Origin: an uncultured Alphaproteobacteria bacterium | GTDB taxonomy: Bacteria > Pseudomonadota > Alphaproteobacteria > Bin65 | Direction: 5' to 3' | Assembly (NCBI GenBank): GCA_963730305.1 | Contig: CAVSRB010000004.1 | Coordinates: 1 to 64,000, forward strand | Length of the DNA: 64,000 nucleotides | Part shown: positions 1,449-47,640 of the stretch, piece after piece | How the letters are laid out: every line of letters begins with the position of its first letter | Position numbering within the stretch: the stretch's first letter is position 1 | Position numbers and translations under genes: made by a program | The notes under the pieces: model-generated | What the model was told of the DNA's origin: nothing | What the model saw: only the letters and a program-made list of their open reading frames with translations | Databases searched by the model: none

Positions 1449-2291
1449 TGGCGCAGCCCCTTGACGATGGCGACGTAGTCCGCGTCGTCGGGCGCGATCA
1501 GGCCGTGGCGGACCAGGAAGTCGATGACGACCAGGTTGCAGTTGAACTTGAACCGCTGCGAGGTGGCGACGACCTCGGCGACCCGCTCGATCGACCACAA
1601 CTCGAACTCGGAGATCTCGCCGTCGCGGTTCTTGGGCTCGAAGTCGGCCGGAACCTCGAGGTCGAAGCAATACTGGATGTCGGGCTTGATCCCGCCCTCG
1701 CCCTCGCAGCAATAGGTGATCGCGCCGACCGGCACCGCCCGGGCGATCAGCTCGTCGGGGATCGAGGCCTCCTCGTGCGCCTCCTTCTTGAGGTTCTCGG
1801 CGATGGTCAGGCCGAGCGGCTGGCCGCCGGCGACCATCTGGTCGAGCATGCCGGGATAGTTCTGGCGATGCTCGGCGCGGCGGCCGATCCACATCTTGAG
1901 CCCGTCGTCGGTGCGCACGTAACCGTTCAGGTGCAGTCCGCGCGCACCGATGCCGAAATAGCTGACCGCGGCCCGGTCGATCGCGAACAGCGGCTCCTGG
2001 TCGAAGCCGGCCGCGGCGCCGTAGAGCTCGTCGCGCAGCGCCGGGATGTCGCCCTTGTCGACCAGCGCCTCGACCACGGTCGCCATCGCCGTCGGACCGC
2101 GCTTCGTAGCCGTCGAGCTCGGGCAGCAGCGCCACGTCCTCCTTGCCGACGGCGAAGACCTTGTGGAAGTCGGCGAGCCGGCCGGCGAAGGCGTGGCGGA
2201 TCCAGCCGACCCGGACGTCGCCGACCTTGAAGGGCCGGAACTTCGACAAGTCGTAGCTGTTGCACTCGCGGATGCGGTCGAGAAAGCTCAT
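1445..2291 (-). pseudogene. NUDIX hydrolase with DUF4743-like N-terminal domain, interrupted by a frameshift near 2087-2100 (N-terminal 64 aa in one frame 2291-2100, NUDIX body 2086-1445 in another)
   Basis: 213-aa ORF 1445..2086 has Nudix-box-like GGQPLGLTIAENLKKEAHEEAS; in-window the N-terminal peptide MSFLDRIRECNSYDLSKFRPFKVGDVRVGWIRHAFAGRLADFHKVFAVGKEDVALLPELDGYEA runs in a different frame and dead-ends at the NUDIX ATG; I recall this being the usual N-terminus of DUF4743-NUDIX proteins, but that is memory, not a search. Confidence 0.6.
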
Positions 2292-2318
2292 GCGGAAAGG
2301 CCGTGGGTTGTTGGGGCG

Positions 2319-2678
2319 TCAGCCGCCGACCGGGTGATAGTCATAGGGGCCGATGCCCTGGATGACCATGAAGCGCGAGGTCGTATCCGCGACGTTGCGG
2401 ACGATGTGGGCGACCTTGGGCGGCACGATATGCTCGTTGCCCGGCTCCAGCCGGGTGGTGCTGCGCGGCGCCCGGGTCTCGATCTCGATCGCGCCTTCGA
2501 GGCAGATGAAGCGGTCGTCGATCACGCTGTGCCAGTGCCAGGGCACGCACTGGCCCGGCGCCAGGGTCAGCCGCACCGCGCGCAGGTCCGGCGTCTCGGC
2601 GACGACCTCGGTATTGTCGATGGAGAACTCATCTTCCCAGGGCCGGGTGTTGGCTTCCGGCATCGCACGCTCCCCCAT
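2319..2678 (-). CDS. Cupin domain protein (small, ~115 aa)
   Basis: Two-His cupin motifs (PWHWHSV ... PPKVAHIVRN); compact ORF; good codon bias. Confidence 0.7.
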   Translation of the reverse strand: MGERAMPEANTRPWEDEFSIDNTEVVAETPDLRAVRLTLAPGQCVPWHWHSVIDDRFICLEGAIEIETRAPRSTTRLEPGNEHIVPPKVAHIVRNVADTTSRFMVIQGIGPYDYHPVGG

Positions 2679-2780
2679 GTGAGCGCCGGCGGGCGCGGCG
2701 CGTTTTCACCCGATCATGGCAGGGCGAGGGCCGCCGGGTCCAGCCCGACGTGACCCGCGGCGCGCCCCGTTTCCGAGCGG

Positions 2781-3356
2781 CTAGAACCGCTCCGACAGCC
2801 AGATCGCCAGCCGCGAGCCGGCCTTGATCGCCCCGGTCAGCACCTCGTAGCCGGGGGCGTTGCGGGCGTCGTTGTCGAGGGCGGTGTCGCGGTGCTCGAC
2901 CTCTTCGCGGCGGAATTCCTCGATGGTCTCGCGCAGGTCGGCCTCGTCGTCGCCGAGCTGCTCGCGCTGGCGGGCGTAGTGCTCGTCGATCACCTCCTCG
3001 ACCGCGACGGTGCAGGCCATCGCCGCCTCGCGGCCGATCAGCGCCGTGCCGGCGCCGAGCGCGAAGCCGGCGACGTGCCACAGCGGCGACAGGATGGTCG
3101 GCCGCACCTGGCGGTCGACGATCAGCTTGTCGAAGGCGTCGAGGTGGCGCTGTTCCTGCGCCGCCATGTGGCGCAAGGTCGGGGCGTCGTCGGACTGGCC
3201 GAGCACGGCGAGCTGGCCGGCGTAGATGCGCGCGGCGCCGAACTCGCCGGCCTGGTCGACCCGGATCATCCGCTCGACCAGGGCGTCGCGGTCGGGATCG
3301 CCGGGCAGCAGGCCCTCGCCGGTGCGCCTGCCGGTTTTCCGGGGGCTTTCGGTCAT
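2781..3356 (-). CDS. coq7: Demethoxyubiquinone hydroxylase COQ7 family (ubiquinone biosynthesis), 191 aa
   Basis: Ferritin-like di-iron repeats (EQRHLDAFDK ... EEVEHRDTA), typical MTESPRK... start; ATG overlaps dsbB stop (ATGA at 3353-3356); long Arg-rich N-terminal extension of the ORF rejected. Confidence 0.8.
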   Translation of the reverse strand: MTESPRKTGRRTGEGLLPGDPDRDALVERMIRVDQAGEFGAARIYAGQLAVLGQSDDAPTLRHMAAQEQRHLDAFDKLIVDRQVRPTILSPLWHVAGFALGAGTALIGREAAMACTVAVEEVIDEHYARQREQLGDDEADLRETIEEFRREEVEHRDTALDNDARNAPGYEVLTGAIKAGSRLAIWLSERF

Positions 3357-3832: not shown

Positions 3833-3925
3833 GGGTCATGGCGAGAGACTATACGGACGGTCTGCACGGCGCGCACCCGCCGATTCGCCGCAAGGACGCC
3901 GGCGCGCTCCCCAGAGGACGGTCGC

Positions 3926-5221
3926 CTAGCCCGCGGCGCTGTAGCCGAACACGCCCGGCAGCCACAGCACGAGCTCGGGCACGAAGATCAGCGCCACCAG
4001 CACCAGCAGCAGCACGCACAGGAAGGGGATGACCTCGCGGATGATCGTGCCCAGGCGGACGCCGGACAGGCTGCTGAGCACGAACAGCAGCAGGCCGTAG
4101 GGCGGGGTCACCAGCCCGATCATGATGTTGAACACGATGACCACGCCGAAATGGACCGGGTCGACCCCGAGCGCCTGCATGGTCGGCACGAGCAGCGGCA
4201 CCAGGACCAGGAGCATGACCGCGACGTCGAAGAAACAGCCCAGGATCAGGAAGGCGATGTTGGTCACGATCAGGAAGGAGATCGGCGTCAGGTGCGCCCC
4301 GGCAAGCAGCCCGGCGAGGAGCGCGGGCACCTGCTCGTTGGTGATCGCGAAGTTGAAGATGAACGCGCCGCTGACCGCGACGGCGACGATGCTGGTCGCC
4401 TTCGCCGACTCGAGCAGGACGTCGAACAGCGACGCCAAGCCGATCACCCGGTAGACGCCGATCGCCAGGATCAGCGCGTAGGCAGCGGCGACCGCGGCCG
4501 CCTCGGTCGCCGTGGTCACGCCGGTATAGATGCCGGTCAGCAGGATCACCGGCATCATCATCGGCAGGAACGCGCGCAACAGGATGCGCGGATAGGCCCG
4601 CCAGGGGATCGGCGCCTCGGTCGGGAAGCGGCGGCGGCGTGCGATCAGCCAGACCGCGGCCATCAGCGACACGGTCAGCAGCAGGCCCGGCACGACGCCG
4701 CCGAGGAACAGCGCGCCGACCGAGGTGTTGGCGACCAAGGCATAAAGCACCAACGGGATCGACGGCGGGATGATCGGGCCGATGGTCGCCGACGCCGCGG
4801 TGACCGCGACCGCGAAGCCCTCGGGATAGCGGTTCTCGCGCCGCATCATCTCGATCATCACCTTGCCCGGCCCGGCCGCGTCGGCGACCGCGCTGCCGCT
4901 CATCCCGGAGAAGACCAGGCTGGTCAGGATGTTGGCGTGGGCCAGCCCGCCCCGGACCCGGCCGACGCAGGCGACGCCGAACTCGAGCAGGCGCTCGGTG
5001 ATCGTGCCGGCGTTCATGACGTTGGCGGCGAAGATGAACAGCGGGATCGCGATCAGCACGTAGCTGGCGAACAGCCGGCTGCTGATCTGCTCGAGAACCA
5101 GGCCGACGTCCTGGCCGGAGACGAACAGGTAGGCCACGCCGGAGCCGATCAGCGACAGCCCCAGCGGGAAGCCAAGTGCCGCGCCGACGACGAAGGTCAG
5201 GAACAGGATCGCGATGGCCAT
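3926..5221 (-). CDS. dctM: TRAP transporter large permease (DctM family), 431 aa
   Basis: Polytopic membrane protein with DctM-typical N-terminus and length; downstream of dctQ/dctP. Confidence 0.85.
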   Translation of the reverse strand: MAIAILFLTFVVGAALGFPLGLSLIGSGVAYLFVSGQDVGLVLEQISSRLFASYVLIAIPLFIFAANVMNAGTITERLLEFGVACVGRVRGGLAHANILTSLVFSGMSGSAVADAAGPGKVMIEMMRRENRYPEGFAVAVTAASATIGPIIPPSIPLVLYALVANTSVGALFLGGVVPGLLLTVSLMAAVWLIARRRRFPTEAPIPWRAYPRILLRAFLPMMMPVILLTGIYTGVTTATEAAAVAAAYALILAIGVYRVIGLASLFDVLLESAKATSIVAVAVSGAFIFNFAITNEQVPALLAGLLAGAHLTPISFLIVTNIAFLILGCFFDVAVMLLVLVPLLVPTMQALGVDPVHFGVVIVFNIMIGLVTPPYGLLLFVLSSLSGVRLGTIIREVIPFLCVLLLVLVALIFVPELVLWLPGVFGYSAAG

Positions 5222-5240
5222 GGGGAGGTGCGGATCGCGC

Positions 5241-5720
5241 CTAGCCGGCGCGGGCGCCCAGCGAGCGCAGGCCGACCACGGCGTCGAACAGGCAGCGCAA
5301 GGCGATGACGACGAAGAAGATGGCGAAGCTGCTGTGGACGAAGGCCATCGATATCTCCATCAGCGACGTGTGCTGGTCGGACGCGAAGATCAGGTAGTCG
5401 ATGACGGTCGGCGCCGCGGCGACGTAGAGCAGCCCGAACGCCCCGGCGGCGACCGAATCGACGATCACTTGCCAGCGCGGGCCCAGGACGTCGCGCAACA
5501 GGGCGAAGCGGATGTGCTGGCCCATCGGCACCAGGAGCGCGCCGGTCCAGAACACGATCCAGACGAACAGGATGGCGGCGAGCTCGTCCGGCCAGCCGAG
5601 CGGGGCATCGAAGACATAGCGGGCGACGATGTTGAGCAGGAAGGCGCCGAGCATGGCAGCGAAGGCGAGCACCGCTGCCAGCTCGGCGATCTTCCTGGCG
5701 ATCCCGAATGCGAGACGCAC
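5241..5720 (-). CDS. dctQ: TRAP transporter small permease (DctQ family), 159 aa
   Basis: 4-TM small permease between dctP and dctM. Confidence 0.8.
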   Translation of the reverse strand: MRLAFGIARKIAELAAVLAFAAMLGAFLLNIVARYVFDAPLGWPDELAAILFVWIVFWTGALLVPMGQHIRFALLRDVLGPRWQVIVDSVAAGAFGLLYVAAAPTVIDYLIFASDQHTSLMEISMAFVHSSFAIFFVVIALRCLFDAVVGLRSLGARAG

Positions 5721-5756
5721 GATCCGGGCTCCCGGCTAACGGACGATGCCGTCAGC

Positions 5757-6773
5757 CTATTTGGTCGCGCGGATCGCGTCGATGACGGCCTTGGGCCAGG
5801 TCTTCAGCTTGCCGGCCCGGGCATAGGTCGCCCACATGTGCTTGCGGAAGGCGGCGATGTCCGGGTGGGTGATGACGATGCCGCGCGACTTGAAGTAGGC
5901 GATCTGCTTCTGCTCGTCGGCGAGGCGCATCTTGTCGTTCCAGGCGCAGGCCTTCGTCGACGCGTCGACGACCAGGGCCTGCTGGGCCTTGGTCATCTTC
6001 TGGAACGCCTTCTCGGCGATCGCGAAGAACACCATCTGAACCATGTGGTTGGTCAGGACCACTTCCTTGGTGACCTCGTCCATCCTGGCCGCCCGGGTGA
6101 TCGTCACCGGGTTGTCCTGGCCGTCGACGGCGCCGTTCTTGATGGCGAGATAGGCTTCGGACATCGCCATCGGGGTCGGGATGATGCCCAGGCCCCGGCC
6201 CAGCAGCAGGAAGTCGGGCGCGCCGGGCATGCGCAGCTTGATGCCCTTCAGGTCCGCGGGCGTCTTGGCGTGGCGCACCTTGCTGATGTTGACCTCGCGC
6301 GTGCCGAGGTAGCAGTTGGCGAGGATGCGGATGCCCATCTTCTTGAGCACCGTCGCCTTGTATTTCGCGCCGAGCGGGCCGGCCCAGACCTTCTGGAGAT
6401 GGGCGTAGTTACGGAACAGGTAGCCGGCATTGTAGACCGACAGTTCCTTGACGTAGGCGGAGACCTCGAAGGTCGCCAGGGTGTTCATCTCCAGGTTGCC
6501 TCGGCGCATCGCCGGGATCTCGGTGCCCTGCTTGAACAGCGAGCCGCCCGGATGGACCGACACGTCGAACTGACCCTTGGCGCGCGTTTCCAGGTCGGCC
6601 TTGAAGCGCTCCATCGCCTTGACGAGGATTTCGCCCGGCGGCGCCGGCGCGGAGAAGCGCAGCCGGACCGCGTCGGCCAGCGCGGAGTTGGACAGGCTCG
6701 CCGCGGCGACGGCGGCCAACGCCGCAGCGCCAGCCAGGCGAGCGACGGGGACCTTGTGGAAGCTACGTTTCAT
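5757..6773 (-). CDS. dctP: TRAP transporter substrate-binding protein (DctP family), 338 aa
   Basis: Signal peptide + DctP-family SBP sequence; first gene of P-Q-M triad. Confidence 0.85.
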   Translation of the reverse strand: MKRSFHKVPVARLAGAAALAAVAAASLSNSALADAVRLRFSAPAPPGEILVKAMERFKADLETRAKGQFDVSVHPGGSLFKQGTEIPAMRRGNLEMNTLATFEVSAYVKELSVYNAGYLFRNYAHLQKVWAGPLGAKYKATVLKKMGIRILANCYLGTREVNISKVRHAKTPADLKGIKLRMPGAPDFLLLGRGLGIIPTPMAMSEAYLAIKNGAVDGQDNPVTITRAARMDEVTKEVVLTNHMVQMVFFAIAEKAFQKMTKAQQALVVDASTKACAWNDKMRLADEQKQIAYFKSRGIVITHPDIAAFRKHMWATYARAGKLKTWPKAVIDAIRATK

Positions 6774-6828
6774 GACACTTCTCCCTGTTCAGTGACTGCT
6801 TTCGCCGCCTCCGGCGGCGGTTCCACGA

Positions 6829-7566
6829 CTAGATCAAGGTGCCGCCCAGCGACTTGCCGCCGTCGGCGTAGAGCACCTGACCGGTGACGAAGTCGGTGCG
6901 GGCGTCGGTGAAGAAGGCGACCGCCTGGGCGATCTGATCCGGCGCGGCCGGCTTGCCACCCGGCTCCAGCGCCGACCACTTGGCGAAGTCCTCGGCCGGC
7001 ATGGAACGGGTCATCGGCGTGTCGGTGAAGCCGGGCGACACGGCGTTGACCGCGATCTGCCGCTCGCGCAGCTCCAGCGCCATCGCCCGGGTCAGCCCGA
7101 TCACCGCCGCTTTCGACGCGACGTAGTGCGGGAAGCCGACGCCGCCGACCGCCGCGCGCGAGGCGATGAAAACGATCCGGCCGCCCGCGCCCATCCGCTT
7201 GAGCGCTTCCTGGGCGACGATGAAGGACCCGATCAGGTTGACGTCGAGGATCCGGCGGAAATCGTCTTCGGTGACCTCGTCGATCGACTTGAGCCAGCTC
7301 ACCCCCGCCGCACAGACGCAGGCGGCGACCGACGGGTGCGCGGCGAGCGCTCCGGCGATCGCGGCCCGGTCGGTCACGTCGGCGGGGACCGCCTCCGCGG
7401 ACAGGCCTTCGCCAGCGAGGTCTTCGGCGACGCCGCGGACGGCCTCTTCCTGACGGTCGATCGCGAGGACATGAAAGCCGTCTCGGGCGAGGCGCCGGAC
7501 CACGGCGCGCCCGATGCCCTGACCACCGCCGGTCACGATCGCAACGCGCGCGGCGTCGGCGGACAC
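6829..7566 (-). CDS. SDR family NAD(P)-dependent oxidoreductase, 245 aa
   Basis: TGGGQGIGRA Rossmann motif, YxxxK (YVASKAA) catalytic motif. Confidence 0.85.
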   Translation of the reverse strand: MSADAARVAIVTGGGQGIGRAVVRRLARDGFHVLAIDRQEEAVRGVAEDLAGEGLSAEAVPADVTDRAAIAGALAAHPSVAACVCAAGVSWLKSIDEVTEDDFRRILDVNLIGSFIVAQEALKRMGAGGRIVFIASRAAVGGVGFPHYVASKAAVIGLTRAMALELRERQIAVNAVSPGFTDTPMTRSMPAEDFAKWSALEPGGKPAAPDQIAQAVAFFTDARTDFVTGQVLYADGGKSLGGTLI

Positions 7567-7568
7567 GC

Positions 7569-8510
7569 CTAGATCTCCCCCGCCACGGAAACCGAAAGAG
7601 CGCCGACACGCTCGATCTCGGCGTCGACCGTGTCGCCGACCGACAGGAAGGTCCGCTTCGGGAAGCCGACCCCCGCGGGCGTGCCGGTCAGCAGCACGTC
7701 GCCCGGCTCCAGGGTCATGATCCGGGACAGGATGGCGATCTGCTCGGGGATCGAGAAGACCATGCCGGAGGTCCGGGCATCCTGCTTGGTCTCGCCGTTG
7801 ACCGAGAGCTTGAGCGCCAGATCCATCGGGTCGCCGACGAAGGCGGCCGGCACCAGTTGCGGGCCCATCGGGCAGCTCGTGTCCTGCGCCTTACCGGCCA
7901 CCCAGTCGAGCTTGTAGAAGGTGTCCGGCGCCTGGTTGAGGTCGCGGGCGGACAGGTCGATGGCGACGGTGTAGGCGGCGATCGAGTCGAGCGCGTCGGC
8001 CTCGCTGGCGTTGCGGGTGCGGCGCCCGAACACCACCGCCAGCTCGACCTCCCAGTCGAGCATCGCGGTATCCGCGGGCTTGAGGACGGTCGCGCCCGGG
8101 CCGACGATGGCGGTGCGCGGCGGCTTGAAGAAGAAGAACAGCCGCTGGGCCTCCTTGCGCAGGTCCTGCACGCCCATCTCGGCCAGGTGATCGTAGTAGT
8201 TCGCCCCCGCGCACAGCACCTTGCCGGGATAGCGCAGCGGCGCCGCGAACGTGCAGTCCGCCACCGGGCGGCCGAGGTCGGCGGCGTCCGCCGGCGCGCG
8301 CTCGGCAATGGCGCCCAGCGCGGCGCTCGCCGCCGTCCAGTCCGCGAAACAGGCGACGGTCGACGCCGGCACGTCGGCGATCCCGAGCCGCTGCGCCGTC
8401 TCGGCGAGCGGCCACCATTGCCCGTCGACGATCAGGCCGTCGGTAGCCGCGGCCTCCGGGTTCGAGCCCGGCGCGGCCGGAGCGGAGAGTACGGAAGCGA
8501 GTGAAAACAA
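7569..8510 (-). CDS. Fumarylacetoacetate hydrolase (FAH) family protein, 313 aa
   Basis: FAH-fold C-terminal domain motifs (LLTGTPAGVG, DxE metal ligands), stop adjacent to SDR start. Confidence 0.8.
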   Translation of the reverse strand: MFSLASVLSAPAAPGSNPEAAATDGLIVDGQWWPLAETAQRLGIADVPASTVACFADWTAASAALGAIAERAPADAADLGRPVADCTFAAPLRYPGKVLCAGANYYDHLAEMGVQDLRKEAQRLFFFFKPPRTAIVGPGATVLKPADTAMLDWEVELAVVFGRRTRNASEADALDSIAAYTVAIDLSARDLNQAPDTFYKLDWVAGKAQDTSCPMGPQLVPAAFVGDPMDLALKLSVNGETKQDARTSGMVFSIPEQIAILSRIMTLEPGDVLLTGTPAGVGFPKRTFLSVGDTVDAEIERVGALSVSVAGEI

Positions 8511-8711
8511 CGCCTGTCACCTGTCGCGAATGTTGTCCCGGTTCCAACGGTAGCGGCGCCTGTTCGAATGTCAACATATTTTCGAAAATATGGAAATGAG
8601 GGTAACAAATGGCAATTTGCCAAAAGATGGAGATGGTATATCTCTAGGACATGCGGCCGCGGCGGCACCGATCCGGGTGCGCGCGGCGCCGCGACGACCG
8701 ACGAGGATCGA

Positions 8712-9380
8712 ATGTCTGAGACCGCCGCGGATCGGATCTACAAGCTGCTCCACGCCGACCTGCTCCGGGGGCGCTACCAGCCCGGCGACGCGCTGCGCTT
8801 CGCGGCGCTGCGCGCGGCCTACGACTGCGGCATCAGCCCGTTGCGCGAGGCGCTGTTCCGGCTCGAGACCAAGAAGCTGGTCGTCGCCGAGGGGCATCGC
8901 GGCTTCCGCGTACCGCCGATCTCCAGCGCCGAGATCCGCGACATCACCTCGCTCCGGCAGAAGCTCGACACCGACGCGCTGCGGCGGTCGATCGCGCGCG
9001 GCGACGACGAGTGGGAAGCCCGGTGCATCGGCGCGCTCCACCGGCTCAACAAGGCGACCACGGCGGCGATAAAGGATGTCGACGGCTGGGAAGCGCGGCA
9101 CCGGGCGTTCCACAACGCCCTGATCGACGCCTGCGACTCGCCGTGGCTCCTCTATATGTGCGAGCTGCTCTACGACCAGACCGAGCGGTACCGGCGGCTG
9201 CGCTTCTCGTCGACCGTCCAGCCCAAGCTGATCCGCGACATCGCCGACGAGCACCAGGCGATCCTCGACGCCACGCTCCGCCGCGACGCGGACGGAGCGG
9301 CGAAGCTGTTGTCCGAGCATATCGACGAGACCGCCGCCTTCGTGCTCGCCAACCTCGCGTCGGTCGACGACGCGGCCTGA
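8712..9380 (+). CDS. GntR family transcriptional regulator (FadR/FCD-type C-terminal domain), 223 aa; start at MSETAADRIYK
   Basis: N-terminal wHTH (ADRIYKLLHADLLRGRYQPGDAL), FCD domain; divergent from the FAH-SDR-TRAP operon. Confidence 0.8.
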   Translation: MSETAADRIYKLLHADLLRGRYQPGDALRFAALRAAYDCGISPLREALFRLETKKLVVAEGHRGFRVPPISSAEIRDITSLRQKLDTDALRRSIARGDDEWEARCIGALHRLNKATTAAIKDVDGWEARHRAFHNALIDACDSPWLLYMCELLYDQTERYRRLRFSSTVQPKLIRDIADEHQAILDATLRRDADGAAKLLSEHIDETAAFVLANLASVDDAA

Positions 9381-10021: not shown

Positions 10022-10603
10022 CTAGATTACGTAGGCGAGGAGGACGAAGCCGCCAACCAGCAGCAGGGCGAAAACCGTCATCGCCAGCTTCAGGTTGCGG
10101 TCCATGAAGTCCTTGATCCACGGACCGAAGATATAGAGCGCGCCGGCCAGGATGAAATAGCGCGCGCCGCGGCCGACGATCGAGGCCAGGGTGAAGGAGA
10201 CGAAGTCCATGCCGGCCACGCCGCTGGCGATGGTCACCACCTTGTAGGGGATCGGCGTCAACGCCCCGATCAGGACGAAGAACACGCCGAACTTGTTGTA
10301 CTCGGCCTGGACCCTGGCGAATTGGTCCATGCTCGAGTAGAGCTCGATCAGCGGCTTGCCCACCGTCTCGAACAGGCCCCAGCCGACCAGCCAGCCGAAG
10401 CAACCGCCGAGCACCGAAGCCGCCGTGCACCACGCCGCGAGCGCCCAGGCGCGCTGGCGCATCGCGATCACCATCGGGATCAGCAGGATATCGGCCGGGA
10501 TCGGGAAGAAAGACGCCTCGGCGAAGGCGAACGCCATCAGCCACCACACGGCGTGCGGATGCGCGGCCTTGGACAGTACCCATTCGTAGAGGCGCTGGAG
10601 CAC
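10022..10603 (-). CDS. DedA/YqaA-family (VTT domain) inner-membrane protein, 193 aa, GTG start (VLQRLYEW...)
   Basis: ~65% identical paralogue of 9399..9980 (FFPIPADILLIPM); the 563-aa ORF 10022..11713 is an upstream over-extension. Confidence 0.7.
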   Translation of the reverse strand: MLQRLYEWVLSKAAHPHAVWWLMAFAFAEASFFPIPADILLIPMVIAMRQRAWALAAWCTAASVLGGCFGWLVGWGLFETVGKPLIELYSSMDQFARVQAEYNKFGVFFVLIGALTPIPYKVVTIASGVAGMDFVSFTLASIVGRGARYFILAGALYIFGPWIKDFMDRNLKLAMTVFALLLVGGFVLLAYVI

Positions 10604-10956
10604 GGGAATATCCGGGCGGGTGGCGGGCCTTCCCTGTAGCAGCGGGAGCCCGCGGGAGCAATCACGCGGGGCCTGCGGCAGCCGTTGGCCGGGCCTGGAG
10701 GCGGGGCCGGCACGGGGACGCGCGTTTCGACGGCACGCTGCAAACGGGCCTCGCTGCTTGACCGGCGACTGGTTTCGGCCGCTTATGCTTCTCGTCGGCA
10801 ACCCATCGGTCCGGCTCGCCTGGCTGCCGAGCGCAGCCACCATCAGCCGTCTGACGGATCCCGTTCCTCGAAAGACCGTCGCCAGGCCTCGGCGCGGCGT
10901 CGGTCTTCGATGGCTGCACGTCGGACGGCCCGAAAAAAATACAAGGAAAAATCGGT

Positions 10957-11196
10957 ATGATTGGACGTAGCCTGATCTTCGCCTGCGCGGCGATTGTCGT
11001 TGCCAGTCCCGCTTTCGCCGGGCCGCTGACTTGCACCTACACGCTGCAGGGCAAAAGCACCGGAGCCGATGGCGGAAACCGGTACAATGTGACGCCCGGC
11101 CAGTGGAAGAAGGTCGACCGTCAGTGGGTCTATGTGATTCCCGACGGCAAGTGGAACGACGGCAACGACTGCCCCAAGTCTCCGCCGAAGAGCTGA
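10957..11196 (+). CDS. Small secreted hypothetical protein (79 aa, signal peptide, 2 Cys)
   Basis: AGGAAAAA RBS 6 nt upstream, classical signal peptide (ASPAFA/GP), locally lower GC, sits in ~1 kb otherwise gene-poor stretch. Confidence 0.45.
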   Translation: MIGRSLIFACAAIVVASPAFAGPLTCTYTLQGKSTGADGGNRYNVTPGQWKKVDRQWVYVIPDGKWNDGNDCPKSPPKS

Positions 11197-11669
11197 TATC
11201 GAGACGCCTCCAAAGTCGGATCAGCAGGATGGGGCCGGGCCCCGTCCTGCGATCCTGCCGACGTCTCCGATGCGGTTCGGGGCTGCCCGCGCCAAGGGCG
11301 CCGCTATGGGAGAATGTCACGCGCGGTCTTTGGCCATCGTCCGATGGCGGGCCGCGCCTGGACTCCGTTGTCGCGATGCTACCGAATGGCCCGTCCCCGG
11401 CTGGCGACCGCATAGCCAAGACCGGCGATGGCCCCGGTTCCTGGCCCCGCCATCGACCTCCTCCGCATCTTGCCCTCCGGCCCAGCCGAATTTCAGGTCG
11501 AGCGCGCCAGCTCCGTCGTTCGGAGCGGGCTGCGAGTATCGTGACGACATTGCCGGGCTGAAGCAGGACCAGGCTTTCCTGACACGGCGCCTGTCCCTTA
11601 TGGTCGGGAACCTTCTGCGCGGCGGGCTTGCCCATCGCGATATCCGGCAACCCGACGAGACGGCCCCTC

Positions 11670-12818: not shown

Positions 12819-14451
12819 TCAGGTTTCCCAGGGCCCGGGCTTGGGTGCATCCGACCGAGGAGCACCCGACTGGGACGCACTCGCCTCGGGCGGTTCCGGA
12901 GCCGCGGCCTCGGACTTAACAGTCTCGGACTTGGCAGTCTCGGATTTGGCATTCCCAGGACTGGCGGGCTGGGACGTGGCGGCGTCGGGTGCCGCCGGCG
13001 CCGACTGCACTGGGTCGGTCCTCGCCGGCCCGGTCTTGGCGGGCGGAGGCGCGCCCTGCGGCGCCGGACCGGCCGCGCCCTGCGGCGCCGGGGCAGGAGA
13101 GCCGGCAGCCCCGTTGGTCTTGCCCGCCACCCACTCCGGCAGCGAGATGCCGTGGCTGTCGAGCACGTCCTTGAGCGGCGGCACGGCCTTGATAGAGGCT
13201 CTGGATGAAGTCGGCGGTCGAGCCGTTGCCGTTGCCCGAATCCCAGACCGTGACCTTGTCGAACTTCAGATCCTTGATCGCGCCCATCTGGGTAGCCAGC
13301 AGCTGCTCGACCTTGTCGGCGACGATGAGCTGGACTGCCTTTTCCGGATCGCCGCCGGCGGCCGCGACGATCGCCTTCAGGCCCGCCGCCGTCTGCTCGA
13401 GGATCGCATTGATGCCGCGGGCCTCGGCTTCCTTGACCGAGTAGATCGCATCGGCCTCGCCGCGGGCGTGCTCGCGCTGCCGCTCGGCGTCGGCCTGGGC
13501 GGCGACGATGGTCTGCTTCTTCTGGGCCTCGGCAGGGACCACCTGCTCGGCGTAGAGACGCGCCTCCTCGCGCGCCGCCCGCGCCTGTTCGGCCTCGCGC
13601 TCGGCGGCGTAGGATTCCTGTTGGGCCTTCGCTTCCGCGACCTGCTTGGCGGCGGTCGCGCGCCGGTCGGCTTCGGCCTGCCGCTCGCTGAAGTCGGCGT
13701 TGGACTGGGCGATCGCCGCCTTCGAGTCGTTTTCGCCCTTGATCGCTTGCGCGTTGGCCTCGGCGATCTGGATGCGCTTGTCGCGGTCGGCCGCGGCCTC
13801 GCCGGTCGCGCCGGACCGGTCGTGCTGGGCGACCTCGACCTTGGCCTCGTTGATCGCCTTGGCCGCCGCCTCCTTGCCGAGCGCGTCGATGTAGCCGGAC
13901 TCGTCGGTGATGTCGCGGACGTTGACGTTGATGAGCTTGAGGCCGACCTTGGCCAGCTCGTCGCCGACGCTCTCGGTCACGTTCTTGATGAACTTGTCGC
14001 GGTCGGCGTTGATCTCCTCGATGTCCATGGTCGCGACGACCACGCGGAGCTGGCCGAAGATGATGTCGCGGGCCAGCTCCTGGATATCGTTGTTCTTCTT
14101 GCCGAGCAGCCGTTCAGCGGCATTCTGCATCACCGCCGGCTCGGTCGAGACGCCGATGGTGAAGCTCGCCGGCACGTTGATGCGGATGTTCTGCTTCGAC
14201 AGCGCGCCCTTCAGGTCGAGCTCGATCCCCATGGGACTGAGGTCGAGCCATTCCGACGCCTGGATGACCGGCCAGACGAAGGCGGCGCCGCCATGGACGC
14301 ACTTCGAGCTCTTGTCCTCGCCGACCTTGCCGTAGATCACCAGGATCTTGTCGGACGGGCAGCGTTTGTACCGGGTCAGCGCCGCGATGAAGAGAAAGGC
14401 AAACGCGATCGCGAAGACCGCGATGATGACGAGTACGACTGCTCCGCCCAT
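12819..14451 (-). pseudogene. Flotillin-like SPFH/band-7 protein (YqiK/FloA-like), interrupted by +1 frameshift at ~13188-13200; C-terminal Pro/Ala-rich tail
   Basis: SPFH domain and coiled-coil EA-rich region in 511-aa ORF; conserved C-terminal PPLKDVLDSHGISLPEWV motif continues in another frame (ORF 12819..13184) right after ...ADFIQSLY. Confidence 0.75.
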
Positions 14452-21352: not shown

Positions 21353-21441
21353 GCCCCTGTGGCGGAATTGGTAGACGCGGCAGACTCAAAATCTGTTGTC
21401 CGGCAACGGACGTGGGAGTTCGAGTCTCCCCGGGGGCACCA
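21353..21441 (+). tRNA. tRNA-Leu (anticodon CAA), 89 nt incl. CCA
   Basis: 7-bp acceptor stem GCCCCUG/CGGGGGC, anticodon loop CUCAAAA, long variable arm, T-loop GGGAGUUCGAGUCUCCC, encoded CCA. Confidence 0.9.
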
Positions 21442-23081: not shown

Positions 23082-23953
23082 CCCCTTTCGAATTGATGGA
23101 GCCGACCTCCCTAAAGGAGGCGCTGGCGCTGCTCGACCCCGACGACCCCGACGTGCGGCCGTGCGGCGGCGGCACCGCGCTGATGCTGATGATGAAGGCG
23201 GGCGCGCTGAAACCGACCCGGCTGGTCAGCCTGAGGCGGGTCGACGGCGGCCTGCACGATATCGAGGCCGGTGCGGACGGTAGCCTACGCATGGGCGCAC
23301 TGACCCCGCTGGCGGCGGTCGAGCGGTCCGCCGCCGTCCGCGACCACGCGCCGGTGATCGCCCGCACCCTGCGGACCCTGTCCAACATCCGCGTGCGCAA
23401 CGTCGCCACCCTGGGCGGCCACCTCGCCCACGGCGACCCGCACATGGACCTGCCGCCGGTGATGATCGCCCTCGACGCGACGGTGACGCTGACCGGGCCG
23501 AGCGGATCGCGCGAGCTGCCGGCGGCCGACCTGTACACCGGCTTCTTCGAGACCGCGCTGGCCGGCGACGAGCTGATCACCGGCGTGAGCGTGCCGGCCC
23601 AGCCGAGGACCGCCGGCTACGTCAAGTGCACCACCCGCTCGGCCGACGACTGGCCGGCGCTGGGGGTTGCCGTGGCGCTCGACATGGACGGCGACACCGT
23701 GCGCGGCGCCCGGGTCGCGGTCAGCGCGGCGACCGAGCAGCCGGCGCGGCTGACCGAAGCCGAAGCGGCGCTGACCGGCGCGGCGATCGACGACGCCAGC
23801 CTGAAGCGGGCGGGCGACGCGGCGGCGGACGAAGCCGCCATCGTCGGCGACGCCCAGGGCTCGGCCGACTACAAGAAGCAGCTGCTGCGCGTGTCGCTCG
23901 GCCGCGCGGTCAGACAGGCGCTCGCCGCCGGACAGGAAGGAGCGGGCCGATGA
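23078..23953 (+). CDS. FAD-binding molybdopterin dehydrogenase medium subunit (CoxM/XdhB-like), 291 aa
   Basis: FAD-binding PCMH domain (VRPCGGGTALMLMMK...), CO-dehydrogenase flavoprotein C-domain; ATGA coupling on both sides. Confidence 0.85.
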   Translation: MTPFELMEPTSLKEALALLDPDDPDVRPCGGGTALMLMMKAGALKPTRLVSLRRVDGGLHDIEAGADGSLRMGALTPLAAVERSAAVRDHAPVIARTLRTLSNIRVRNVATLGGHLAHGDPHMDLPPVMIALDATVTLTGPSGSRELPAADLYTGFFETALAGDELITGVSVPAQPRTAGYVKCTTRSADDWPALGVAVALDMDGDTVRGARVAVSAATEQPARLTEAEAALTGAAIDDASLKRAGDAAADEAAIVGDAQGSADYKKQLLRVSLGRAVRQALAAGQEGAGR

Positions 23954-26220
23954 GCACGACCGCCAAGACCCGACAGGTCGGCCGCTCGCTGCCCCGGCTG
24001 GAAGCGCGCGAGAAGGTCACCGGCCGCGCCGAGTACATCCACAACCTGCGCCTGCCGGGCATGCTGCACGCCAAGATCTTCCGCAGCGACATCCCCCACG
24101 GACGGATCGTCAAGATCGACACCAGCGCCGCCGCGGCGGTCGAGGGTGTGTTCGCCGTCTACACCGGTGAGGACGTCAAGCGGGTGATCCCCGACCCCTA
24201 TTTCGGCCCCGCCTTCCACGACCAGCCGATCCTGGCGCTCGACAAGGTTCGCTACGTCGGCGAGGCGGTCGCGGTGGTGCTGGCCAGCGACCCGCACGTC
24301 GCCCAGGCGGCCGCCGACCTGATCGAGGCCGAGTACGAGGAGCTGCCGGCGGTGTTCGACGAGGTCGAGGCGATGAACTCGCAAGCCATCGTCCACGAGG
24401 AGCTCAAGCCCGCCGGCACCTTCCCGGACCTCAAGCACCTCCAAGGCAAGCGCGACACCAACGTCGCACTCGACTTCCACCTGCGCAGGGGCGACACCGA
24501 CAAGGCCTTTGCCGAGGCCGACCACGTGTTCGAGCACACCTTCAACACCCAGCGGGTGCTGCACCTGGCGATGGAGCCGCTGGTCTCGCTCGCCGAGACC
24601 ACCAGCGACCACACGGTGACGATCCACACCGCGTCGCAGAGTCCGTCCTTCGTCCGCATCGAGATCGCCCGGCTGCTCGGCTGGGCCGAGAACCAGGTGC
24701 GGGTGCGGACCGCCTATCTCGGCGGCGGCTACGGCGCCAAGCTCTACATCAAGCTGGAGGCGCTGGCGGTGGCGCTGGCCCTGCTCGCGCGCAAGCCGGT
24801 GCGGGTCGCGCTCGGGATGGACGAGGTCTTCCTACCATCAACAAGCACCCGACCACCTTCAAGATCCGCAGCGCGGTCACCAAGGACGGCAAGGTCACCG
24901 GCCGCGCCTGCGAGGTCTGGTGGAACGGCGGCGCCTATGCCGACATCGGCCCGCGGGTGACCCAGAAGTCGGGCTTCACCGCGGCGGGGCCCTACGACAT
25001 CGACAACGTCACCATCAATTCCTACGCGGCCTACACCAACCTGCCGCCGGCCGGCGCGCTGCGCGGCTTCGGCATCCCGCAGCTGGTCTGGGCCTACGAG
25101 AGCCACACCGACCTGATCGCCCGCGAGATGGGCATCGACCCGGTCGCGTTCCGGCGGAAGAACATCCTGCGCGACGGACGGCCCCAGGCGACCGGGACGG
25201 AGATGAAGGACGCCGCCTTCGACGCGGTGCTCGACCGCATCGCCGCAGCGGATGGACTGGGACAAGCCGTTCGACAAGGGCGCCGGCACGAAGCTGCGCG
25301 GCCGCGGGGTCGGCCTCGGCTTCAAGGCCTGCATCGCGCCGACCACCTCGGTCGCGATCGTCAACATGGGCGCCGACGGCAGCTGCACGCTCTATTGCGG
25401 CACCGTCGACATGGGCCAGGGCTGCGGCACGGCGATGGCCCAGATGGTCGCCGAGGTGCTCGACCTGGAGGCCGAGGACGTGCGGGTGGTCCAGCCCGAC
25501 ACCGACATCACCCCCTACGACATGGGCACGCTCGGCTCGCGCTCGCTGTTCCACATGGGTCACGCGGTCCGGCTCGCCGCCGAGGACGTCAAGGCCAAGC
25601 TGGCGGCGCTGGCCGACGAGCTCGGCCTGCCGCCCGGCTCCAACATCCCGATCCCGGAGATGTTCGTGAAGCGCTACGGCATGCGGGCCGGCAACATCAT
25701 CGGCACCGGCACCTTCGTGCCCAGCTACACCTCGCCGGACGCCGACGGGCTGACGCCGGACGCCACGCCCTTCTGGATGGTCGGCGGCGCCGGGGTCGAG
25801 ATCGAGGTCGACACCGAGACCGGCCACATCAAGATCGAGCGGCTGGTCAACGTCTGCGACGTCGGCACCCCGATCAACCCGGCCATCGTCGAGACCCAGA
25901 TCTCCGGCGGCGCGGTGATGCAGCTCGGCTTCACCATGTTCGAGGAGATGGCCTTCGACGAGGGCCAGCTCACCAACGGCACGCTCGCCGACTACCGCAT
26001 CCCCGGCTTCCACGACCTGCCGGCGACGATGGAGAACGAGGCGGTCGACGCGGTCCAGAGCTCGGGACCGTTCGGCGCCAAGGGCGTCGGCGAATCGGCG
26101 ACCTTCGGCGTCTCGCCGGCCATCGCCAACGCGATCCACGACGCCGTCGGGGTCCGGCTGACGCGCCTGCCGCTGACGCCCGAGGCCGTGTTCACGGCCC
26201 TACAGAATAAGGAGGGCTGA
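23950..26220 (+). pseudogene. Molybdopterin-binding large subunit (CoxL/XdhA-like, ~757 aa) split over three frames by two single-base frameshifts (~24835 and ~25250)
   Basis: Three consecutive ORFs (23950.., 24957.., 25252..26220) together give a colinear full-length large subunit: ...RVALGMDEVFL|TINKHPTTFKIRSAVTKDGKVTG... and ...DRIAAA|DWDKPFDKGAGTKLRGRGVGLG... Confidence 0.8.
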
Positions 26221-26713: not shown

Positions 26714-26771
26714 CCGGCCCGGGCGCCGGCCTGCCCCACCCATCGAACCAGGCACATTCCAGGAGTTCAGC

Positions 26772-27940: not shown

Positions 27941-28676
27941 TCATCCCCAGATCAGCACGCTCACCCCGATCACCAGCAGGAACACCAGCCCGAAGCGGCG
28001 GTAGCCCGCGTCGGGTACGTGCTTGAAGGTCTGCACGCCCAGCCAGACGCCGACGAAGTTGGCCGGGATGACGGAGGCCACCAGCCACAAGAGGTGGCGG
28101 TCCAGGATGCCGGTGATCGACAAAGGCCACGATGCCGAACACGCCGATGATCGCGGTCAGCGAATAGGCGCTGGCCCGGGTCACCGCGGCCGCGGTGTTC
28201 TGGGCGAAGTAATAGAACACGAAGGGGATGCCGCCCATGCTGGTCGCCCCGCCGATCAGGCCCGAGGCCGCGCCGCAGGCGATGTCGCGCGGCGTGGTGT
28301 GCTCGCCCCGGAAGCGCCAGCCGCTCAGCAGCAGCATCGCGCCGACCACCAAGGTGCCGGCGATGACCCGGCGCATCACGTCCTTGTCGGCGATCACCAG
28401 CACGTAGAGGCCGAGCGGGAAGGTCACGACCGAGGCCCCGGCGATCCACAGGATCGAGCTCCAGCGCGTGTGCCGGAACGCGCCGGGCACCAGCGGCGCG
28501 CCGGCGATGGTGTCCTGCAGCCACGCCGCCGCGACCGCCTGGGCGGGGTCGATGAACAGGCTGTAGAGCGGCGTCATCACCATGTTGGCGCCGAAGCCGG
28601 TGAAGCCGCGGATGAAGCCGCCCGCGAAGACGACCAGCGCCGCCTGCCAGAAATGATCGGGAAGCCAGTCAGGCAT
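27941..28676 (-). pseudogene. TauE/SafE-family sulfite/anion exporter, frameshifted near 28120-28130 (C-terminal 60 aa in separate ORF 27941..28123)
   Basis: Internal repeat of 4-TM units with glycine-rich motifs; C-terminal helix ...HLLWLVASVIPANFVGVWLGV... continues in different frame. Confidence 0.65.
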
Positions 28677-38542: not shown

Positions 38543-38558
38543 ACAATTCTCTTCCGGT

Positions 38559-39428
38559 TCAGGCGACGCCGCGGGGCGCGGCCGTCATGTCTTGCGTTTC
38601 CGTGCCGGTGACGACCCGGATGGCGGGGAATGCCAGGGTGGCGACGCGGCGGCCGTCCTCGGCCGTCTTGAAGCCCAGCGTCGCGTCGTGGATGCTGGCC
38701 AGGAAGTTGGCGCGCATCTCGTCGAAGTCGGAGCGGCCCGAGGCTTCCGACGTCATGGTGGCGGCGGGGTCGGTGGCCTCGGTGCTGACGATCTGGAAGA
38801 CCATCTTGCCGTTGTCGACGCAGCGCACGACGACCTCGACCGCCGAACCGGCGGGCGACAGGCGGATCGCCTCGCCGAGCACGTCGATCAGCATCTGCTG
38901 GACGCATTCCTCGTCGGCATAGAGCGGCGGCAGGGCGCGGCCGAGCCGGGCCTGGACCTTGACGTCCTTGCCCTGGGCGAGCTCGCGCACCGACTGGTAG
39001 GCGGTGCGGATGACCGCGCCGACGTCGACCCGGATCTCGTGCAGCGCCCGGGCGGGCGGCAGCAGCATCGCGTGTTCCTGGTTGAAGGACTCGATCAGGC
39101 CCATCAGGTCCTGGCCGCTCGAATGGATGTCGTTGGCGTATTCGCGATAGCGCTCGGGCATCGGACCCCGCGCCTCCTCGCGCATCAGCGCCGAGAAGCC
39201 GATGATCGCGTTGAGCAGCGTGCGCAGCTCGTGGCTCATGTTGACGAGGTAGTCGGATTCCGCCCGGGTCTGCTCCAGCACCCGGCGCAGCGAGGTCGCC
39301 AAGGCTTCGGCGCGCTGCTGGGTGTCGCGCAGCGCCGTTTCGGCCTTGCGCTGGCGCACCAGGTGGCCGAGCTGTGCCGAATAGGTCGCCAGAAACGACG
39401 AGCCGCTCGTCTGATTACCAAACATCAA
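38559..39428 (-). CDS. Soluble histidine-kinase-like protein with intact HisKA H-box but degenerate HATPase_c (pseudo-kinase), 289 aa
   Basis: H-box NMSHELRTLLNAIIGFSALM; N-box Asn residues replaced (LIDVLGEAIRLS), G1 (VDNGKMVF) and G2 (ATLGFKTA) non-canonical; no TM segments; 16 nt upstream of herA-like gene. Confidence 0.6.
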   Translation of the reverse strand: MMFGNQTSGSSFLATYSAQLGHLVRQRKAETALRDTQQRAEALATSLRRVLEQTRAESDYLVNMSHELRTLLNAIIGFSALMREEARGPMPERYREYANDIHSSGQDLMGLIESFNQEHAMLLPPARALHEIRVDVGAVIRTAYQSVRELAQGKDVKVQARLGRALPPLYADEECVQQMLIDVLGEAIRLSPAGSAVEVVVRCVDNGKMVFQIVSTEATDPAATMTSEASGRSDFDEMRANFLASIHDATLGFKTAEDGRRVATLAFPAIRVVTGTETQDMTAAPRGVA

Positions 39429-40269: not shown

Positions 40270-40419
40270 CGCGTTTCCCCCGGTCTCGCGCGGCGACGCG
40301 CCGCCTGTTGCATGGCGCGCCTTCGCCGGCCTTTGGCAACTTTACCTCCCGCCGATCCGCCTCTAAGGTTCGGCGAGACAGGCAGGTTTTACCAGATTGA
40401 CCATTCGGGAGGAATTACC

Positions 40420-41442: not shown

Positions 41443-41641
41443 CCTGTCTCCATTCTGGGTTGAGAGGGCCGGCAGCCACCGCTGCCGGCCCTTTTTCTCG
41501 TCCGGCGCGCGCCCCGCCTGCGACCGAATGTCGGCCCCGGCGGATCCCCTGCGGTGCAACTTTACCGACCGTAAATATTTCTCTAAGGTCTTGCGCTTCC
41601 GCGCTGCGTGGACGCGCGTGGAAGACATAGGGAGGATAATC

Positions 41642-42664: not shown

Positions 42665-42667
42665 GGC

Positions 42668-44991: not shown

Positions 44992-45148
44992 CGGGTCGAT
45001 AGATTGCGCCGGGCGGCAGCCCGGCGCGCAACGCAAGAGGCGGGCCCGGGTCCGCCTCTTGTCATTCGGGGCCGGCTGCGGGCACCATGCCGCCGACTTC
45101 CGGCCCTAACCCAGCCCCGGCCGCGGCCGACCGCAACAGGAGGATCCC

Positions 45149-46876
45149 ATGCCCGACGACAGCCGCGCGCGCACCAACCGGCCCAAATACCGCTCGCGCA
45201 TCACCACCGACGGCATGGACCGGGTCGCGCACCGGGCCTTCATGCGCGCCATGGGGCTCGACGACGAGGCGATCGCCCGGCCGATGATCGGCGTGGTCAC
45301 CACCGACGGCGAGACCACGCCCTGCAACATGGGCCTGTCGGACCAGGCCGCCCACGCCTACCGCGGCATCGCCGAGGCCGGCGGCACGCCGCGGGAATTC
45401 ACGACGGTGTCCGTGTCCGACGGCATCTCGATGCAGCACCAGGGCATGAAGTTCTCGCTGGTGACCCGCGAGATCATCGCCGACAGCGTCGAGGCGGTCG
45501 TCCGCGGCCACGTCTACGACGCGCTGATCGGCTTCGCCGGCTGCGACAAGACCCTGCCCGGCCTGATGATGGCGATGGTGCGGCTGAACGTGCCCGCGGT
45601 CTTCGTCTACGGCGGCGCGATGCTGCCGGGCAATCGGGACGGCAAGGACGTCACGGTGCTGACCGCCTACGAGGGCATCGGCAGCGTCATGGCCGGCACG
45701 ATGGACCAGGACGAGGTCGACGCCCTGGAGCTGGTCTGCGCGCCGACCATCGGCGCCTGCCCGGGCCAGTTCACCGCCAACACGATGGGCATGGTCTCCG
45801 AGGCGCTGGGCCTGGCCCCGCTCGGCTCGTCGATGATCCCGGCGGTCTATTCGGAGCGCGTCGGGGTCGCGCGCAAGGCCGGCCAGACCCTGATGGCGGC
45901 GCTGGAGAATGGCGGGCCGCTGCCGCGCGACCTGGTCACGCCGGTGAGCCTCGCCAACGCCGCCGCCGTGGTCGCGGCGACCGGCGGATCGACCAACGCG
46001 GCGATGCACCTGCCCGCGATCGCGCACGAGGCCGGCATCGACTTCGACATGGCCGCGGTCGCCGAGGTCTTCGACCGCACCCCGCTGGTCGCCGACCTGC
46101 AGCCGGGCGGCCGCTTCCTGGCCCGGGACGTCCACGCCATCGGCGGCGCGCCGGTGATCTTCAAGCTGCTGATGGAGCTCGGCTGCTTCGACGGCGCGGC
46201 GCTGACCGTCACCGGCGAGACCATGGCCGACGCGCTGAAGGCCTTCCCCGATCCCGACGGCGAGGTGGTGCGCAAGAAGGACAACGTGATCTCGCCCGAC
46301 GGCGGCGTGGTCGTGTTGAAGGGCAACCTGTGCCCCGACGGCGCGCTGCTCAAGGTCGCCGGCCTCAAGTCGCTCACCTTCAAGGGCCCGGCCCGGGTGT
46401 TCGACAACGAGGAGGACTGCAACAGGGTCGTCCAGGCCCAGGACTACCAGGCCGGCGAGGTCATCGTCATCCGCTACGAGGGCCCGCAGGGCGGCCCGGG
46501 CATGCGCGAGATGCTGGGCACGACGGCGCTGATCTACGGCCAGGGCATGGGCGAGCAGGTCGCGCTGCTGACCGACGGCCGCTTCTCGGGCGCGACCCGC
46601 GGCATGATGATCGGCTACGCCAGCCCCGAGGCCGCCACCGGCGGCCCGCTCGCGCTGATCGAGAACGGCGACGTCATCGAGATCGACGCCAAGGCGCGCA
46701 AGATCTCGGTCGAGCTGTCGGACGAAGAGCTGGCGGCGCCGGCGCGCGGCCTGGAAGGCGCCCGACCCGCGCCACCTCGGCGGCGCGCTGGAGAAGTATG
46801 CCCGGCTGGTCGGCCCGGCGAACAAGGGCGCGGTGACGCATTCGGGCAATGTGGAGTGGGAGGTGGAGGAGCACTA
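45149..46876 (+). pseudogene. IlvD/EDD-family dehydratase (sugar-acid/dihydroxy-acid dehydratase), ~575 aa, -1 frameshift at ~46745 truncating the conserved C-terminus
   Basis: [11 protein letters not shown]-terminus, Fe-S ligands (CDK...CPG...), AGGAGG RBS; conserved tail [41 protein letters not shown] is readable in another frame ending TAG at 46874-46876. Confidence 0.8.
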
Positions 46877-46947
46877 GGCTCCCGCTTCCCGACGGGCATA
46901 GCGACGGTTGCCGCCCGCCACCAGCCGGCGAGACTCTTGAGGAAGAC

Positions 46948-47640
46948 ATGACGAGTGCCGAAGGCGCCCTGGTGCTGTTCTCCGGGGGCCAGGATTCGAC
47001 GACCTGCCTCGCCTGGGCGCTCGACCGGTTCGAGCGAGTGGAGACCGTGGGCTTCGCCTATGGCCAGCGCCACCTGGTCGAGATGGACTGCCGGCCGCCG
47101 CTGCTGGAACGCCTCGCCGCGCTGCGGCCCGACTGGCGCGCGCGGCTCGGGCCGGACGAGGTGATCGACCTGTCGGCCCTGGGCGCGGTGTCGGAGACGG
47201 CGCTGACCCGCGAGGTCGCGATCGAGATGGGCGCGGAGGGGCTGCCCAACACGTTCGTGCCGGGGCGCAACCTGGTCTTCCTGACCTTCGCCGCGGCGCT
47301 CGCCTACCGGCGCGGGCTGCGCCACCTCGTCGCCGGCATGTGCGAAACCGACTATTCCGGCTATCCGGATTGCCGCGACGACACGATCAAGGCGCTGCAG
47401 GTCGCGCTCAACCTCGGCATGGAGCGGCGCTTCGTCGTCCACACCCCGCTGATGTGGATCGACAAGGCCGAGACGTGGCGGCTGGCCGCGGCGCTGGGCG
47501 GCGACCGGCTGGTCCGGCTGATCGTCGAGGATACCCATAGCTGCTATCTCGGCGACCGCGGCACGCGGCACGACTGGGGCTTCGGCTGCGGCGACTGCCC
47601 CGCCTGCGCGCTTCGCGCCGAGGGCTACCGACGCTTCATA
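46948..47640 (+). CDS. queC: 7-cyano-7-deazaguanine synthase QueC (~231 aa); C-terminal end uncertain (annotated to out-of-frame TAG at 47638-47640, i.e. assumes a terminal frameshift; called ORF has no stop until 47844)
   Basis: PP-loop [18 protein letters not shown], Zn-binding [10 protein letters not shown]; frame stays open through shadow of the convergent cupin gene, suggesting terminal frameshift or lost stop. Confidence 0.75.

Follow-up and report, generated by a model that had tools for sequence, protein, structure and literature searches.

The DNA analysed here, 64,000 nucleotides (nt) of contig CAVSRB010000004.1 from an uncultured alphaproteobacterium (hereafter ‘the window’), is gene-dense, has a GC content of ~69%, and encodes proteins whose closest homologues are found in Stellaceae and in ‘Bauldia’ metagenome-assembled genomes (MAGs). 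Six single-base insertions or deletions (indels) break the reading frames of five of its genes, which encode a DUF4743-NUDIX hydrolase, a flotillin, an XDH-family large subunit (broken twice), a TauE protein, and an IlvD dehydratase (Table 1). A probable seventh event lies where the gene for QueC converges with a cupin gene. An earlier note, made by a model from the sequence alone, had attributed these breaks to errors in the assembly. Here, we describe the lesions, compare them with the corresponding DNA of independent relatives, and consider whether they are mutations of the organism or errors of the deposited record.

Table 1. Broken genes, the convergent QueC and cupin genes, and the homopolymer between their probable ends (window coordinates; aa, amino acids)
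Feature	Positions	Strand	Observation
DUF4743-NUDIX hydrolase gene	1445..2291	-	Split by one extra base; repaired product 281 aa
Flotillin (SPFH/Band 7) gene	12819..14451	-	Split by an extra base; repaired product 543 aa
XDH/CoxL-family molybdopterin-binding large subunit gene	23950..26220	+	Two lesions; repaired product 756 aa
TauE/SafE-family membrane protein gene	27941..28676	-	Split by extra T28117; repaired product 244 aa
IlvD/Edd-family dihydroxy-acid dehydratase gene	45149..46877	+	Last 46 codons shifted; repaired product 575 aa
QueC (7-cyano-7-deazaguanine synthase) gene	46948..47844	+	298 aa as deposited; probable true stop TGA 47702-47704 (251 aa)
Cupin_2 gene, convergent with QueC	47625..48197	-	190 aa as deposited; probable true stop 47669-47671 (175 aa)
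C7 homopolymer	47674..47680		Longest run in coding sequence called by the hidden Markov model; probable seventh event (extra C)

Detection and repair of the frame breaks

At this GC content, spurious open reading frames (ORFs) are abundant throughout the window, and coding phase was therefore called with a seven-state hidden Markov model (HMM) of codon-position GC, each segment being mapped to its stop-to-stop ORF. The HMM and three-frame translations together place same-strand phase switches, with neither a stop nor a start, at 2086, 13193, 24834, 25242, 28123, and 46756. Away from the junctions themselves, GC at third codon positions is 0.9-1.0 on both sides. All six breaks lie no more than 8 nt from where the earlier note had put them, and its observation that conserved downstream sequence continues in an adjacent frame is borne out at each of them by the translations and, at four, by Pfam matches of the repaired proteins. 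Its count of six, probably seven, frameshifted genes needs adjusting: six breaks are confirmed by HMM, translations, and alignments, but they fall in five genes, and QueC would be the sixth.

Repairs consisted of removing or adding one base per site, followed by comparison with Pfam models and alignment to homologues and relatives. This one-base reversal gives, at each site, a full-length protein colinear with all homologues. The flotillin junction and the second XDH junction are supported by homologue alignments and the others by Pfam continuity. About 50 other genes of the window give full-length Pfam matches, and neither these scans nor the HMM found further frame breaks beyond the listed genes; the damage is thus confined to those genes. 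Two additional HMM candidates were rejected, one at ~3357 as a normal DsbB/Coq7 gene boundary and one at ~36650-36860 as the disordered C-terminus of a HerA-like ATPase. The only RNA gene found by Rfam and ARAGORN, a tRNA-Leu(CAA) at 21353-21441 (+), appears intact (56.7 bits).

The exact lesions, given below in plus-strand coordinates, were set by DNA alignment to independent relatives, which were reached through the 90%-identity protein clusters of the source's gene calls. Two of these relatives are nearly identical to the window: L001 (Logan, ERR11523667; 99.17%) and L082 (JGI 3300004021; 99.13% over 1376 nt). The others are L084 (JGI 3300056877; 89%), L083 (GCA_947259335.1; 87%), L166 (JGI 3300057003; 86-90%), and L165 (GCA_040218925.1; 82.6%). 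A prolyl oligopeptidase scan for syntenic loci yielded, among the matches listed, only relatives of ~50% identity and no usable synteny, and local tblastn was likewise fruitless.

The lesions

In the NUDIX gene, the most parsimonious lesion is an extra T2092 (A on the coding strand); the sole indel between L082 and the window over their 1376 aligned nt is at 2092-2094. The DUF4743 model spans residues 3-114 of the repaired protein, with the junction at about residue 66, and an intact, near-identical relative of the same length, 281 aa, exists (P0526). The TauE gene carries an additional T on the plus strand (coding strand GTC-G[A]T-CAC) that is absent from both L001 and L083. The TauE model matches residues 13-239 of the repaired protein and thus bridges the junction. 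The public collection has this repaired protein verbatim (P0361), along with another intact relative (P0362). No other repaired protein was found verbatim there: repaired variants of the other genes (nine proteins) had no such match, a result that is uninformative since relatives differ by at least one residue. Four unbroken proteins encoded nearby and the over-long QueC (P0241) had no exact match in another assembly either.

The extra base in the flotillin gene is A13192, the bracketed T in the coding-strand reading CTC-TA[T]-C-AAG, where L084 reads CTCTA-CAAG and the window CTCTATCAAG. This junction falls outside the Band_7 domain. Many homologues, gathered by an exhaustive HMMER search, nevertheless align past it as a single stretch, ungapped across ...TADFIQSL(Y)KAVPPLKDVL..., and P0528 and P0529, relatives that belong to the same 90% cluster, have SL(Y/F)KAVPPL here.

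Two lesions of opposite sign affect the XDH gene. First, a G is missing between 24833 and 24834, which turns the Leu codon CTG into CT- (L083 TTCCTGACC, window TTCCT-ACC); second, there is an extra base at 25247-25248, either G25248 or A25247 (L083 GCCGAA-CGG, window GCCGCAGCGG). The 138 codons in between are out of frame, so that the frames run 2, 1, 2. The MoCoBD_1 model spans residues 169-406 of the repaired protein, across the first junction, and homologues of 748-772 aa are colinear through both, reading DEVFLTI(N/T)KHP and IA(A/E)R(M/L)DW. The broken subunit gene sits with genes for FAD-binding (23078-23953) and 2Fe-2S (26225-26713) subunits and is one of two XDH/CoxL-family large subunit genes in the window, the other being intact (15434-17770, minus strand, 778 aa).

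Finally, the IlvD gene has gained one base near its 3′ end, G46738 or C46739/46740: both L165 and L166 read GAAGC-CCGG where the window reads GCGGCGCCGG, and no other indel disrupts the frame of the coding sequence. The ILV_EDD_C model spans residues 372-561 of the repaired protein, across the junction. The final 42 residues encoded in the shifted frame recur with 100% identity in P0121, a 575-aa homologue that is 85% identical overall.

Comparison with independent relatives

At all six sites, every relative has an intact gene; the lesions are private to this record. The comparison is closest for NUDIX and TauE, which are intact in L082 and L001, respectively, i.e. in near-identical independent assemblies. 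Flotillin, both XDH sites, and IlvD were compared with relatives at ~83-89% DNA identity, all of which are intact.

Across 4264 nt aligned with the near-identical relatives, the window shows thirty-three substitutions and only three one-base indels, two of which are the NUDIX and TauE frameshifts. The third is intergenic, at 26736-26737, where the window lacks a T present in L001 (CTGCCC-CACCC versus CTGCCCTCACCC); this difference may be natural, or it may be a further error of this type in the consensus. Twenty-six of the substitutions are synonymous, with ratios of synonymous to non-synonymous changes of 6:1 inside NUDIX and 3:0 inside TauE. The divergence around the lesions is real and under purifying selection. 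Because substitutions within broken genes are mostly synonymous, these genes were under selection until effectively the present. The substitutions are so few that very recent inactivation is also compatible with the excess.

The relatives bear as well on the idea that the genes are read through by programmed ribosomal frameshifting or transcriptional slippage, so that full-length proteins are made despite the shifts. The intact downstream frames agree with this idea, as they would with others, and nothing specific favours it. The breaks lie in five unrelated families with hundreds of single-frame homologues, 99%-identical relatives included; none of the junctions has a slippery heptamer, an in-frame stop, or a poly-A/T slippage tract; and the XDH gene would require both a +1 and a -1 shift. 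Judged by these homologues and junction sequences, programmed frameshifting would have a negligible chance of being correct, and for practical purposes we treat it as excluded.

Sequence context of the lesions

The six verified lesions all lie in runs of one or two bases. Such runs hold ~89% of the bases of the window, which also has 382 runs of at least four and ten runs of at least six; finding six of six events in short runs matches the expectation for random placement (P = 0.50). No common motif, e.g. a methylation-type context, is evident at the six sites or at the probable seventh. The positions fit random placement, as in a consensus built from noisy reads at low coverage.

The earlier note had placed the indels in GC-rich runs and called them typical of long-read or homopolymer errors; these positions do not bear out the homopolymer mechanism. 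Miscalled homopolymer lengths of the 454, Ion Torrent, or Nanopore R9 type are the dominant published consensus error of long reads (PMC9262707, PMC12007338), and the probable seventh event does lie in a C7 run. The six verified events already contradict this explanation at their own sites, in at least three of them the inserted base matches neither of its neighbours (TauE G[A]T, flotillin TA[T]C, NUDIX G[A]C), and three other runs of six are found inside genes that stay intact. We consider homopolymer miscalling a very unlikely source of the set as a whole.

The convergent QueC and cupin genes

As deposited, the QueC gene is abnormally long: its product exceeds the 231-269 aa of 119 homologues, its ORF continues for 68 codons beyond the conserved ...EGYRRF, antisense through the cupin gene, and the two convergent genes overlap by 220 nt. 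The QueC domain itself is complete (model positions 2-208 of 210 matched). The last 15 residues of the cupin as deposited are, in turn, encoded antisense to the C-terminus of QueC. With the C7 run between the probable stops shortened to C6, QueC has 251 aa instead of 298 and the cupin 175 instead of 190, and their overlap shrinks from 220 nt to 35. The repaired cupin then ends like its 77%-identical paralogue, which stops after ...FILVDGERG at 177 aa. Cupin tails past FILIDG vary from 1 to 25 aa within the family, so that homologues alone cannot decide where the cupin ends.

The suspicion voiced in the earlier note that QueC is affected thus gains from its length, but the lesion was probably misplaced at the out-of-frame TAG at 47638: ending QueC there repairs that gene but abolishes the stop of the cupin, which would grow from 190 to 262 aa, and we rejected this solution. 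On circumstantial grounds, we infer that one extra C in the C7 run probably lengthens both genes; the case is circumstantial because no close relative examined carries QueC at this locus. L165 and L166 lack QueC and both cupin genes (46948-49145, ~2.3 kb) at this position, and a metagenome scan returned no cupin relative above 63% identity. If accepted, the seventh event would be the sole one of homopolymer type.

Several observations concern the surroundings. The two Cupin_2 genes, 47625-48197 and 48432-49145 (minus strand), are tandem paralogues, the latter starting at an internal MAKP (177 aa) rather than at the first possible start codon of the 237-aa ORF. In L165 (4539-4785), IlvD is followed directly by a 3-hydroxyisobutyrate-dehydrogenase-like gene and in L166 (5488-5649) by an unrelated ORF that is GST-like as judged from sequence only.

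Origin of the frame breaks

In our assessment, the six verified breaks, and probably the seventh event, very probably arose as one-base errors in the consensus of the deposited assembly rather than by mutation in the organism. Under this explanation, the consensus would have gained a base five or six times and lost one once, at about one position per 9-10 kb, and the assembly would be a long-read one, possibly a MAG, with insufficient coverage or polishing. Faced with such indels, a gene caller reports each affected gene in pieces. Just such pieces make up the gene calls of the source itself, an unannotated NCBI/ENA record, and all of them lie on a single 778,331-bp contig; the indels are therefore present in the public record, and a contig of that length points to long reads. 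Comparable damage has been documented: in the Kastor study, a Nanopore-only draft had 23.3% of its genes pseudogenised, 89% of them by frameshift, as against twenty-five frameshifted genes in the short-read sister assembly, and insertion errors outside homopolymers also occurred (PMC12007338). Metagenome bins below ~40x coverage are reported to need polishing (Sereika et al. 2022, PMC9262707).

The alternative is that the frameshifts are genuine and very recent, five to seven genes having been newly inactivated, e.g. after a bottleneck, under relaxed selection, or in a mutator phase. The lesions do stand in the deposited record, and the functions affected could be dispensable or backed up, e.g. 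by the intact XDH-family subunit. The spectrum of lesions speaks against it. Five are insertions, one is a deletion, and none is a nonsense mutation; neither the broken genes nor the gene scans of the window revealed nonsense codons, multi-base indels or larger deletions, or insertion sequence (IS) elements. Among curated Salmonella pseudogenes, insertions make up 17% of single lesions, with 141/346 short deletions and 131/346 premature stops (Kuo and Ochman 2010, PMC2916853); at that share, the probability of at least five insertions in six is 7e-4. Further points against genuine mutation are the nearly complete restriction of substitutions inside the broken genes to synonymous ones and the two hits in XDH, both of which would have to be extremely recent given perfect conservation between them. 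Mismatch-repair mutators produce indels mainly in homopolymers, contrary to what the six events show. We therefore hold genuine mutation to be improbable.

The number of broken genes says less. Five to seven of ~58 genes (9-12%) exceeds the natural pseudogene background of 1-5% (Liu et al. 2004, PMC522871), but the earlier description of a rate far above the natural one is too strong, as the excess is modest by count alone: for five genes, P = 0.0003 against a background of 1% and 0.03-0.16 against 3-5%.

Four considerations weigh against consensus error. With a count only moderately above a 5% background (P = 0.16), the number of genes alone is not decisive. Most natural pseudogenes are strain-specific and typically carry a single lesion, so that absence from relatives is compatible with real mutations (PMC2916853). 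The comparison spectrum comes from Salmonella and not from a 70%-GC alphaproteobacterium. The six events avoid homopolymers, unlike the mostly homopolymer-associated consensus errors of Nanopore and HiFi data; a random-error regime is therefore needed, be it low coverage, insertions like those of continuous long reads (CLR), or a mixed-strain consensus. What the sequences show is the lesions, their exact places, and their absence from all relatives, in DNA that is otherwise intact; from this we infer an origin in sequencing or assembly, and the platform. Assembly error, as proposed in the earlier note, is thus retained as the best-supported explanation on indirect evidence (private lesions, synonymous excess, spectrum) and without the homopolymer mechanism.

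Consequences for the record

The practical value of these results lies in quality control: ‘pseudogenes’ of this kind are to be repaired, not interpreted. Fragments of the broken genes have already entered protein databases (P0516, P0518, P0523-P0525, and P0527), as has the over-long QueC (P0241). Work that draws on this record would be misled in its counts of pseudogenes, its completeness scores, its view of which pathways are complete (IlvD, QueC), and its protein-family alignments, and six or seven events per 64 kb extrapolate to ~470-550 per 5 Mb. Because six of the seven events lie outside homopolymers, homopolymer-aware polishing would miss most of them; the record and its derived proteins need frameshift-aware or read-based correction. 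Database entries for two relatives also end in frameshifted junk: P0519 (NCBI MEQ8698068.1, from a ‘Bauldia litoralis’ MAG) switches out of frame after ...KACIA, continuing as DHLGRRRQHG..., and P0517, a JGI IlvD fragment, does so after ...VFDRT. The problem is therefore not confined to this record but extends to other metagenome-derived ones from the lineage.

New biology would be nil unless the indels prove real. That they record a very recent burst of insertion-biased, non-homopolymer single-base mutations, by which ~10% of genes, IlvD and QueC included, were inactivated, seems to us quite unlikely. If true, an otherwise selected genome of free-living type would either be at the very onset of decay or be subject to an unusual mutational process, e.g. 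bases added without a template or an error-prone polymerase.

Other features of the window

Two stretches differ in length from L084. At 3926-9380, a 5.5-kb block that holds genes for a TRAP transporter (DctPQM), an SDR, an FAA hydrolase, and a GntR/FCD regulator separates the DsbB and VTT genes, which are directly adjacent in L084 (6178-6457); the block is a gene-cluster insertion or deletion between relatives. At 10666-11668, ~1 kb lies between a VTT/DedA-family gene and a luciferase-like monooxygenase gene where L084 has ~115 nt. This stretch has non-coding codon composition, no Pfam or Rfam match, and no terminal repeats; a minus-strand frame is open throughout (ORF 10022-11713), with Arg-rich junk as its translation.

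Two proteins encoded on the minus strand may be divergent members of their families. The first (32417-33781, 454 aa) has a 4Fe-4S dicluster domain, matches only the C-terminal third of the reductive-dehalogenase model (210-306 of 306), and looks like a divergent enzyme of RdhA-like or QueG-like type. The second (38559-39428, 289 aa), encoded immediately upstream of the HerA-like ATPase gene, has a HisKA domain with no HATPase_c match at E < 0.001 and no frame break seen; it may be a kinase that has diverged or been truncated.

Comparison with known systems

Three known systems offer themselves for comparison. As in prfB and dnaX, a full-length product would require a change of frame at a defined point. 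Homologues of prfB (+1) and dnaX (-1) share the shift, which relies on slippery or stimulatory sequences; homologues of the genes in the window, including those that are 99% identical, are unshifted, and such signals are lacking.

Natural bacterial pseudogenes share more with the broken genes: in both, the lesions are specific to a strain, most genes have just one, and homology still identifies the disrupted ORFs. Deletions and premature stops dominate among natural pseudogenes, whereas the window has five insertions, one deletion, and no stops. It also differs from them in the absence of IS activity, of any larger deletion, and of a signal of relaxed selection, and in a share of affected genes of 9-12% rather than 1-5%.

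The window most resembles unpolished or low-coverage long-read assemblies and MAGs, in which one-base indels, at about one per 10 kb, break conserved genes into pieces that lie in adjacent frames, the pieces are emitted as separate proteins, and substitution accuracy is otherwise good on a long contig (here 778 kb). The residual errors published for Nanopore and HiFi data are mostly homopolymer deletions or length errors, whereas here homopolymers account for just one of the seven events, and insertions for five of the six verified ones. This insertion-dominated, non-homopolymer pattern presumably fits random error of the low-coverage or CLR type.

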